NCBI GenBank assembly: GCA_963773765.1
Contig: CAVZCC010000001.1
Location: 18,901-82,900 of the forward strand
DNA length: 64,000 bases
Direction of reading: 5' to 3'
Source of the DNA: an uncultured Actinomycetota bacterium
GTDB lineage: Bacteria > Actinomycetota > Acidimicrobiia > Acidimicrobiales > Microtrichaceae
Below the pieces are notes generated by a model. It was not told where the DNA came from. It searched no databases and saw only the letters and a program-made list of their open reading frames with translations. Both the position numbers and the translations under genes were made by a program. Below are positions 9,615-11,495 of this stretch, piece by piece; the first letter of the stretch is position 1, and each line of letters starts with the position of its first letter.

Positions 9615-11495
9615 GTGGCGATGACGACCGACGAGGCCCCCGGGGGCACGGTGACGGGACCGATCGACCACGAGGCGCTGCGGGCGCAAGTACCGCGAGG
9701 AGCGCGACAAGCGCCTGCGCCCCGACGGCAACGAGCAGTACGTCGAGCCGACCGGCCGGTTCGCCCACTTCCTCGACGATCCGTACGTCGAAGCGGTCGA
9801 GCGCGAGCCGCTGCGCGACGAGGTCACGGTGGCGCTGATCGGCGGCGGCTTCGCCGGCCTGGTCACCGGTGCCCGGCTCAAGCAGGCCGGCATCGACGAC
9901 GTCCGCATCATCGAGGGCGGCGGCGACGTCGGCGGCGCGTGGTACTGGAACCGCTACCCCGGCGCCATGTGCGACACCGCGGCGATGATCTACCTGCCGT
10001 TGCTCGAGGAGACCGGGCTACATGCCGAGCGCAGAAGTACACTCCGGCGCCGGAGATCTTCGCCCACGCCCAGCGCATCGCCACGCAGTTCGGGCTGTAC
10101 GACAACGCCCTGTTCTCCACGCAGGTGACCAGCCTGACGTGGGACGAGAGCCTCGTCGCGCTGGGTGATCCGCACCGATCGCGGCGACGAGATCCGCGCC
10201 CGGTTCGTGGCCATGGGCACCGGCCCGCTGCACCGGCCGAAGCTGCCCGGCATCCCCGGCATCGAGACCTTCGCCGGCCACAGCCTTCCACACCAGCCGG
10301 TGGGACTACGGCTACACCGGCGGCGACCCGGACGGCGCGCCGATGGACCGAGCTGGCCGACAAGCGGGTCGGGCATCATCGGCACCGGTGCCACCGCGGT
10401 GCAGTGCATCCCGCACCTGGCCCGCGACGCCGGCGAGCTGTTCGTGTTCCAGCGCACGCCGTCGTCGATCGACGTGCGCAACAACCACGCGATCGACCCC
10501 GAGTGGTTCGCCACGCTCGGCCCGGGCTGGCAGCAGCGAGTGGCTGATCAACTTCGCCACGCTGCAGACCGGCGGCTTCGCCGACGAGGACCTGGTCAAG
10601 GACGGCTGGACCGACATCGCCCAGCGCATCCGGGACCGCGTGGTCAGCGAGATCACGCGAGCCCGGCGCCGAGCTCGACCCCGGAGACCGATCGCCAGCG
10701 GCCTATCGAGCGACAGCGACGACGAGAAGATGGAGGAGATCCGGGCCCGGGTCGACGCCGATCGTGCAGGACCCGGCCACGGCCGAGGCGCTCAAGCCCT
10801 GGTACCGCCAGCTGTGCAAGCGGCCGTGCTTCCACGACGAGTACCTGCAGGCCTACAACGAGCCCGACCTGCCACCTCGTCGACACCGACGGCAAGGGCG
10901 TGGAGCGCATCGACGAGACCGGCGTGTGGGTCGGCGGCGTGCACTACGAGCTCGACTGCCTGATCTTCGCCTCCGGCTTCGAGGTCGGCACCGACTACGC
11001 CCGTCGCTCCGGCTACGAGACGGTCGGACGTGACGGGCGTCACGCTCTCGGAGCACTGGGCCGACGGGATGCAGAGCCTGCACGGCATCCACGTGCACGG
11101 CTTCCCGAACCTGTTCATCATCGGGCTGAACCAGGGCGGCCAACCTGATCTCGAACATCACCCAGCAACCTCGTCGAGGCCGGCACGACGATCGCCGCGG
11201 TCGTCGCCCACGCCCTCGACGGTGGGCGCCGACCAGGTCGAGGTCACCGAGGAGGCCGAACAGGCGTGGGTGGCGCATGCTCGACGGCAACTCGAGCCAG
11301 TCGTTCCTCGGCAACCCCGACTGCACGCCCGGCTACTACAACAACGAGGGCGGCCCGATCGGCCGGCGGGAGCGGCTCAACGCCAGCGGCTACCCGGCCG
11401 GGCCGGTGGCCTACTTCGAGTACATCGACCGGTGGCGGAGCTCGGGCGAGTTCGAGGGCCTCGAGTTCCGATCCGGGTCGGCGGCACCGGGATGA
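9615..11495 (+). pseudogene. Baeyer-Villiger monooxygenase paralog 2, heavily degraded (about 8-12 frame changes)
   Basis: Recognisable BVMO segments scattered over at least 5 ORF-track frames. Examples: IDHEALRAQ then [17 protein letters not shown] (shift near 9690); [15 protein letters not shown]...[15 protein letters not shown] (9829 frame); [24 protein letters not shown] (9615 frame); [27 protein letters not shown]...[15 protein letters not shown] (10165 frame); [25 protein letters not shown] (10343 frame); [25 protein letters not shown] (10764 frame); CTPGYYNNEGG...YIDRWRSSGEFEGLEF (11277 frame). Confidence 0.65.

Follow-up and report, generated by a model that had tools for sequence, protein, structure and literature searches.

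Frame-broken genes in genome assemblies have close precedents of different kinds. In one long-read assembly, the collapse of allelic variants is reported to have produced wrong read alignments, insertion and deletion (indel) errors, and apparent frameshifts (PMC8445201), and in long-read-only bacterial and metagenome assemblies, indels that are mostly linked to homopolymers truncate the encoded proteins (PMC9262707). Bacterial pseudogenes formed by reductive decay likewise carry many frameshifts in a still recognizable gene, with several genes hit regionally. Here we describe BVMO-2, a putative type I Baeyer–Villiger monooxygenase (BVMO) gene whose reading frame is broken 18 times. It lies on a 64,000-nucleotide (nt) stretch of DNA, hereafter the window, from an uncultured Actinomycetota bacterium of the Microtrichaceae (contig CAVZCC010000001.1, positions 18,901 to 82,900). 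We consider it very probable that these frameshifts are an assembly or consensus artefact arising from read heterogeneity and laid over an intact, ordinary gene.

The locus shares some features with each of these precedents and departs from all of them. As in Trypanosoma brucei Lister 427 (PMC8445201), conserved open reading frames (ORFs) are frame-broken in what would be a collapsed consensus. However, that organism is a diploid eukaryote whose reads are known, whereas at BVMO-2 the mixture is deduced, the lesions are insertions only, and both alleles are reproduced. Truncation of the IDEEL type (PMC9262707) is similar in that frameshifts are spread over many genes of a contig while the proteins are otherwise intact. 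Its errors are mainly homopolymer indels, whereas homopolymers are under-represented at BVMO-2 (4 of 15 isolated events), no deletion is present, and the events form a 52-fold cluster. Unlike pseudogenes of reductive decay, BVMO-2 shows no deletions, stops, or truncations, its constraint is not relaxed, and its inserted bases are non-random.

Three-frame translation of positions 9601–11520 places the start codon of BVMO-2 at ATG 9621, slightly downstream of the GTG at 9615 where the listed ORF opens, and its stop codon at TGA 11493–11495. Intact orthologues encode 623 amino acids. Frameshift-aware protein-to-DNA alignment of the gene to one intact orthologue, P0001, matches all 623 residues, with 535 of 623 codons identical (86%). 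Among the matches listed there are at least 120 intact homologues with 78–84% identity; the best protein match is 84–86% identical, and protein and metagenome searches did not find an intact copy from the same species. The G+C content of the window is ~72% throughout, and the best homologues come from Acidimicrobiia and Acidimicrobiales metagenome-assembled genomes (MAGs). BVMO-2 is an ordinary gene of a high-GC Acidimicrobiia-like bacterium and is almost certainly intact.

The repaired protein carries the sequence hallmarks of its family. The original prediction that all BVMO blocks are present and in the right order is borne out on the + strand from 9621 to 11495, including (S/A)FHTSRWD, GTGATA, and CTPGYYNNEG. 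Both Rossmann motifs of the form GxGxx[G/A] were found: GGGFAG (residue 74), for flavin adenine dinucleotide, and GTGATA (residue 252), for reduced nicotinamide adenine dinucleotide phosphate (NADPH). Between them, at residue 216, lies the fingerprint FxGxxxHxxxW[P/D], which the extra base at 10284 splits in the raw DNA, and the motif [A/G]GxWxxxx[F/Y]P[G/M]xxxD is located at residue 104. Similarity to the solved BVMO 5mq6 extends over the full length (E 2e-129, query 15-612), and matches to PAMO, steroid MO, OTEMO, and CHMO have E values from 1e-74 to 1e-54 (PAMO 1w4x, E 3e-74). On the basis of these sequence features, BVMO-2 is assigned to the type I BVMOs (class B flavoprotein monooxygenases) and is predicted to oxidize ketones to esters with NADPH and O2. 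It resembles the members with an N-terminal extension (5mq6, the PtlE-like NF045818 family, and PAMO 1w4x) in full-length similarity, both Rossmann motifs, and both signature motifs. Against NCBIfam NF045818 (pentalenolactone D synthase PtlE) it scores 730.8 bits, below the equivalog cut-off of 1100, and it falls in an uncharacterised clade strongly conserved among Acidimicrobiia MAGs. It is a relative of PtlE and not an equivalog.

The frame breaks were counted by frameshift-aware alignment to three homologous proteins (P0001, P0002, and P0004) and confirmed by DNA alignment with 30 intact orthologous genes (80–85% nt identity). Both approaches give 18 breaks, instead of the roughly 10 switches first reported, and the pieces rotate through the three forward frames (0, 1, 2, 0, and so on) rather than occupying at least five. 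Every one of the 18 is a single extra base (two-sided P = 8e-6 for a single direction). The alignment with the orthologous genes contains 24 inserted columns specific to the window within BVMO-2, comprising 15 isolated single bases, six in a patch at 10654–10711, and three that keep the frame, and no deleted column specific to the window.

Each of the 15 isolated insertions was examined for whether its extra base differs from its neighbour and occurs in two or more of the 30 orthologues at a directly adjacent column. This was the case for 14 of 15, compared with 5.4 ± 1.9 of 15 for random positions and bases. For a stricter null, the repaired gene was given 15 random insertions and passed once more through the aligner used for the real data (11 replicates, 144 events recovered). 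The rate was then 0.33 per event, against which the observed count has a binomial P of 2e-6. Isolated events compatible with a homopolymer error number 4 of 15, versus a proportion of 0.49 in the null. Doubling affects third codon positions at eight sites, first positions at four, and second positions at three, and the paired readings are either synonymous codons or residues that are both found in orthologues (H/Y, H/Q, L/M, E/A, E/Q, A/T). Judged by sequence, the insertions look like a sample of the ordinary substitutions between two related gene copies, each written as an insertion. This is the pattern looked for in a “doubled SNP” (single-nucleotide polymorphism) artefact, in which the extra base is the alternative allele of the adjacent site.

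Frameshifts are not restricted to BVMO-2. A census of the window was made with a codon-usage Viterbi frame trace, Pfam searches of stitched translations, and tblastn with ORFs from related loci; the codon-usage model and Pfam were both needed, as a Viterbi pass using only G+C content at third codon positions missed half of the shifts. At least 17 further frameshifts were confirmed outside BVMO-2 in unrelated genes, 15 of them +1 and two called -1. In a further correction to the original prediction, the neighbours also carry lesions, with one frameshift in BVMO-1 and two in the sulfatase gene. A second hot spot is the core of FMO-3, where alignment with eight orthologous genes reveals six one-base insertions and no deletions, together with a compensated group of 2 + 1 nt (44024–44035) and an in-frame triplet. 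Outside both hot spots, 11 frameshifts were confirmed (nine +1, one 2-base insertion, and one called -1 at 4718), giving a background density of 0.18 per kb. In BVMO-2 the density is 52-fold higher, at 9.6 per kb (Poisson P = 5e-25), and FMO-3 has its six breaks within 569 nt (P = 2e-9) in addition to the compensated trio, in keeping with the earlier description of BVMO-2 as the densest run of lesions apart from FMO-3. The sequence shows directly that the lesions are insertions only, that the extra bases match neighbouring alleles and avoid homopolymers, and that the events cluster but also occur across the window.

We propose that the reads at the BVMO-2 locus derive from at least two versions of the gene that are close relatives of one another. 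The second source of reads might be another strain, a near-identical copy that was collapsed, or co-occurring populations that carry the conserved gene. In a fraction of the places where the versions differ, consensus calling would score an insertion and a deletion instead of a substitution, and both bases would be kept side by side. Each such doubled SNP would add one base and shift the frame by +1. The same process would be rare across the window and frequent where read heterogeneity is high, as it may be in BVMO-2 and the core of FMO-3.

A contig search indicates where such reads might come from. BVMO-2 has 76–85% nt identity to genes in 80 other MAGs (loci L001–L080), whose labels span several phyla, whereas its neighbours have no more than ~70% nt identity or are undetectable. 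Because BVMO-2 is more conserved across MAGs than its neighbours and the hot spot is confined to the ORF, recruitment of foreign or second-copy reads during polishing is plausible. The picture would look no different if the strains were hypervariable at this locus or if a near-identical duplicate had been collapsed. As for the software step, an expansion of ambiguity codes in a set order (such as S into CG) was rejected because both base orders occur (GC and CG, AC and CA).

Several points weigh against an artefact of mixed reads. Consensus errors of nanopore sequencing are usually biased towards deletions and linked to homopolymers, and an insertion-only profile is atypical for that platform. 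The event at 11035 resembles a simple homopolymer error. The allele test in FMO-3 supports 4 of 7 single extra bases, two of them strongly, although with eight orthologues its power is low. The -1 call at 4718, in the gene for an MmyB-like regulator, was not traced to an insertion at the nucleotide level. Finally, the read mixture, its origin, and the software step that would make the doubling are all deduced from the assembled sequence.

The alternative that survives best, although we consider it unlikely, is plain stochastic long-read indel error in a low-coverage or unpolished consensus, with no heterogeneity among the reads. Frameshifts occur across the window at ~0.18 per kb, a level seen in long-read-only assemblies (PMC9262707), and the event at 11035 sits in a G run. 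However, long-read error of the homopolymer type is expected at runs and in both directions, and random error leaves unexplained the excess in a single ORF, the 18 insertions without a deletion, and both the allele match and the avoidance of homopolymers described above. The original prediction had offered systematic indel error in a paralogous region as one of two readings. Systematic indel error is supported, but paralogues with only 68% nt identity are not a credible source for it.

The other reading was a very recent pseudogene. The 18 insertions would then be present in the DNA of the organism and the gene would be dead, perhaps as one case among others in a decaying genome. Frameshifts do affect many genes of the window, and with at least four paralogous flavin monooxygenases in the genome, the loss of one could be tolerated. 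Bacterial mutation is reportedly biased towards deletions (Mira, Ochman and Moran 2001). Decay should leave a mixed spectrum of lesions, yet alignments to the three proteins and the 30 orthologous genes reveal 18 insertions, no deletions, no in-frame stops, no truncations, and no large indels. Eighteen independent hits in one gene with no other damage are implausible. Relaxed constraint is not evident either: the mean nonsynonymous divergence (dN) of repaired BVMO-2 to seven orthologues is 0.145, compared with 0.16–0.20 among the intact orthologues, a comparison that rests on an approximate codon alignment and would hardly detect an event of very recent date. The selection test proposed with the original prediction therefore gave no sign of relaxation, and the observation made in that prediction that indels dominate over substitutions holds, given the codon identity to P0001, the lack of in-frame stops, and a dN that is not raised. 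Neutral decay also does not predict single-base insertions that reproduce orthologue alleles, and the same type of lesion occurs in genes as unrelated as those for CtaG and a molybdopterin (Mo) oxidoreductase. We therefore regard a genuine pseudogene as very unlikely.

Still less probable is that the insertions are real but were made by an insertion-biased local process that copies the alternative allele beside the resident one, leaving either a fresh pseudogene or a gene decoded by +1 shifts en masse. Aberrant heteroduplex repair after recombination between diverged gene copies could be an example of such a process.

Equally improbable is a chimeric consensus among the paralogues within the window (BVMO-1, FMO-2, and FMO-3). 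Both hot spots fall in this one gene family, and BVMO-2 matches other parts of the window exactly over at most 30 nt, by sequence the GTGATA region shared with BVMO-1. The alignments to BVMO-1 and FMO-3 that had been suggested as a check were made and speak against a chimera: BVMO-1 has 68% nt identity to BVMO-2 with 84 gaps, and FMO-2 and FMO-3 align only in patches of 37–153 nt (68–86%). In addition, repaired BVMO-2 is coherent along its whole length (80–85% nt to the 30 orthologues), with no segment switching to a paralogue. Because the paralogues in the window are too divergent to merge into one consensus, the second component of a read mixture must be a much closer sequence. Lastly, we give virtually no credence to a correct sequence decoded by programmed +1 ribosomal frameshifting or other recoding, since, although all shifts have the same sign, the sites have no motif in common, the 30 orthologous genes and 120 listed homologous proteins are all single-frame, neighbouring alleles explain the extra bases, and 18 programmed shifts in one bacterial gene are to our knowledge without precedent.

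Table 1. Coordinates of BVMO-2, its extra bases, neighbouring genes, and other frameshifts in the window
Feature	Position	Strand	Description
BVMO-2	9621..11495	+	Putative type I Baeyer–Villiger monooxygenase, ~618 codons once repaired; 18 one-base insertions in the assembly
Extra G by C	9686	+	GCC/GCG (Ala/Ala, third codon position); orthologue column C16, G11
Extra T by C	10019	+	CAC/TAC (His/Tyr); orthologues His 27, Tyr 2
Extra G by C	10031	+	Boundary between codons AGC and CAG; C and G both in adjacent orthologue columns
Extra A by G	10149	+	GCC/ACC (Ala/Thr); orthologue column G21, A5
Extra C by G	10284	+	AGC/ACC; orthologue column G18, C12
Extra A	10347	+	GCC/GAC (Ala/Asp); orthologue column C14, A10
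Extra G by C	10371	+	GTC/GTG (Val/Val), just 5′ of the NADP-binding GTGATA motif; orthologue column C20, G10
Extra C by G	10537	+	GAG/CAG (Glu/Gln); orthologues Glu 6, Gln 4
Complex patch, variable loop	10654..10711	+	Six extra bases: three frame breaks (~10658, 10677, 10711) and one codon; placement uncertain
Extra G by C	10760	+	GCC/GCG (Ala/Ala); orthologue column C16, G14
Extra G by C	10871	+	Third codon position, C/G; orthologue column C13, G13
Extra G in G run	11035	+	Sole isolated event without allele support; homopolymer-compatible
Extra G by C	11138	+	GGC/GGG (Gly/Gly); orthologue column C23, G3
Extra G by C	11165	+	CAC/CAG (His/Gln); orthologues His 14, Gln 10
Extra C by A	11220	+	GAG/GCG (Glu/Ala); orthologues Glu 14, Ala 11
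Extra A by C	11277	+	CTG/ATG (Leu/Met); orthologues Leu 19, Met 4
In-frame 3-nt insertion	11294..11296	+	Window-specific; frame kept
BVMO-1	7711..9509	-	Divergently oriented paralogue, 68% nt to BVMO-2; one frameshift near 8961-8964
FMO-3	43734..45683	+	HAPMO-like BVMO, second hot spot
Gene 3′ of BVMO-2	11492..12129	+	Start overlaps BVMO-2 stop (ATGA); CxxCxxCC motif; single frame
RPE65 oxygenase	235		+1 frameshift
Rieske oxygenase	1266, 1542		+1 frameshifts
MmyB-like regulator	4718		-1 frameshift
α/β-hydrolase	about 5400		+1 frameshift
BVMO-1	about 8962		Called -1; is a 2-base insertion
Sulfatase	12985, 13674		+1 frameshifts
FMO-2	16069		+1 frameshift
Mo-oxidoreductase	24478		+1 frameshift
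FMO-3	six sites, 44419-44987		+1 frameshifts (~44419, 44459, 44538, 44679, 44745, 44987)
CtaG (cytochrome oxidase assembly factor)	58232		+1 frameshift

Among the other lesions of the window (Table 1), the break in BVMO-1 reads CG CGGC AC, compared with CGTG--AC in the orthologue from the Microthrixaceae MAG at locus L023, and can be read as a doubled dinucleotide. In FMO-3, between 44013 and 44039, the 2-nt and 1-nt insertions lie about 10 nt apart, restore the frame, and swap a few residues (…PPPPDAGRRSTAMM…). Because these compensated insertions leave no lasting frameshift, compensated errors elsewhere may be under-counted. The window-specific in-frame 3-nt insertions at 11294–11296 in BVMO-2 and at 43742–43744 in FMO-3 could be natural codons or three-base products of the same artefact. 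No frameshift was confirmed at ~25–43 kb or 45.7–58 kb, where the junctions at 34431, 41225, and 42257 are each a frameshift or a gene boundary. The same holds for a further same-strand frame junction at 23310; the four junctions lie in the genes for a tandem Usp protein and a PNPOx-GAF protein and in the part of a beta-propeller protein gene that encodes its N-terminal linker.

The single-frame gene at 11492–12129 marks the 3′ limit of the BVMO-2 hot spot. No NCBIfam match was found for its small Cys-rich product. The gene is also kept beside a BVMO gene in L003 (75% nt), and it may therefore be co-transcribed with BVMO-2. The divergent BVMO-1/BVMO-2 pair is conserved at L023 (82% and 81% nt, respectively), and a PUA/SAM-methyltransferase gene follows FMO-3, as in L081 and L083.

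The window as a whole is unusually rich in oxygenases, with four class-B flavin monooxygenases, two RPE65-type carotenoid oxygenases, a Rieske ring-hydroxylating oxygenase, and two cytochromes P450. Examples of these genes are located at <1-491(-), 492-1705(-), 1828-3515(+), 7711-9509(-), 9621-11495(+), 15113-16558(-), 43734-45683(+), 58682-59905(-), and 62933->64000(+). It also carries two molybdopterin oxidoreductase genes (23791–26308 and 27688–29988), a sulfatase gene, and a sulfotransferase gene. At ~26000–26100 on the - strand, an ORF extension upstream of the Fe4S4 domain of the Mo-oxidoreductase contains a tandem PAMNQR-PAMNQR repeat, which is probably untranslated leader and not protein.

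Across loci L001–L080, proteins of the BVMO-2 clade are 74–82% identical. The MAGs concerned are labelled as Acidimicrobiia, Myxococcota/Deltaproteobacteria, Binatia, Limnocylindria, Mycobacterium, and even “Bifidobacterium,” “Spirochaetales,” and “Burkholderiales.” This spread of labels suggests horizontal transfer, or else mis-binning or mislabelling of the contigs that carry the gene. Repaired BVMO-2 has 89% identity to a majority consensus built from the 30 orthologues, whereas the real orthologues have 78–85%. Such centrality fits a blended consensus, but we set it aside as evidence because the orthologues were selected by their similarity to the window.

In practical terms, the contig should be polished at the read level before it is used to count pseudogenes, infer gene loss, or predict proteins. 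With at least 35 frameshifts in 64 kb, about a dozen genes will be fragmented and would be mis-annotated as pseudogenes or split ORFs. The signature seen here combines insertion-only frameshifts, extra bases that match the alternative allele of a neighbouring site, and clustering in genes highly conserved across co-occurring taxa. It provides a reference-based means, in the absence of reads, to separate heterogeneity artefacts from true pseudogenes and from homopolymer errors. The biological importance of the frameshifts themselves is small, and the BVMO gene of the organism is very probably normal. For the family, the hot spot hints at one of two situations: this BVMO clade has several alleles in the population that was sampled, or it is common to members of the community at high identity.

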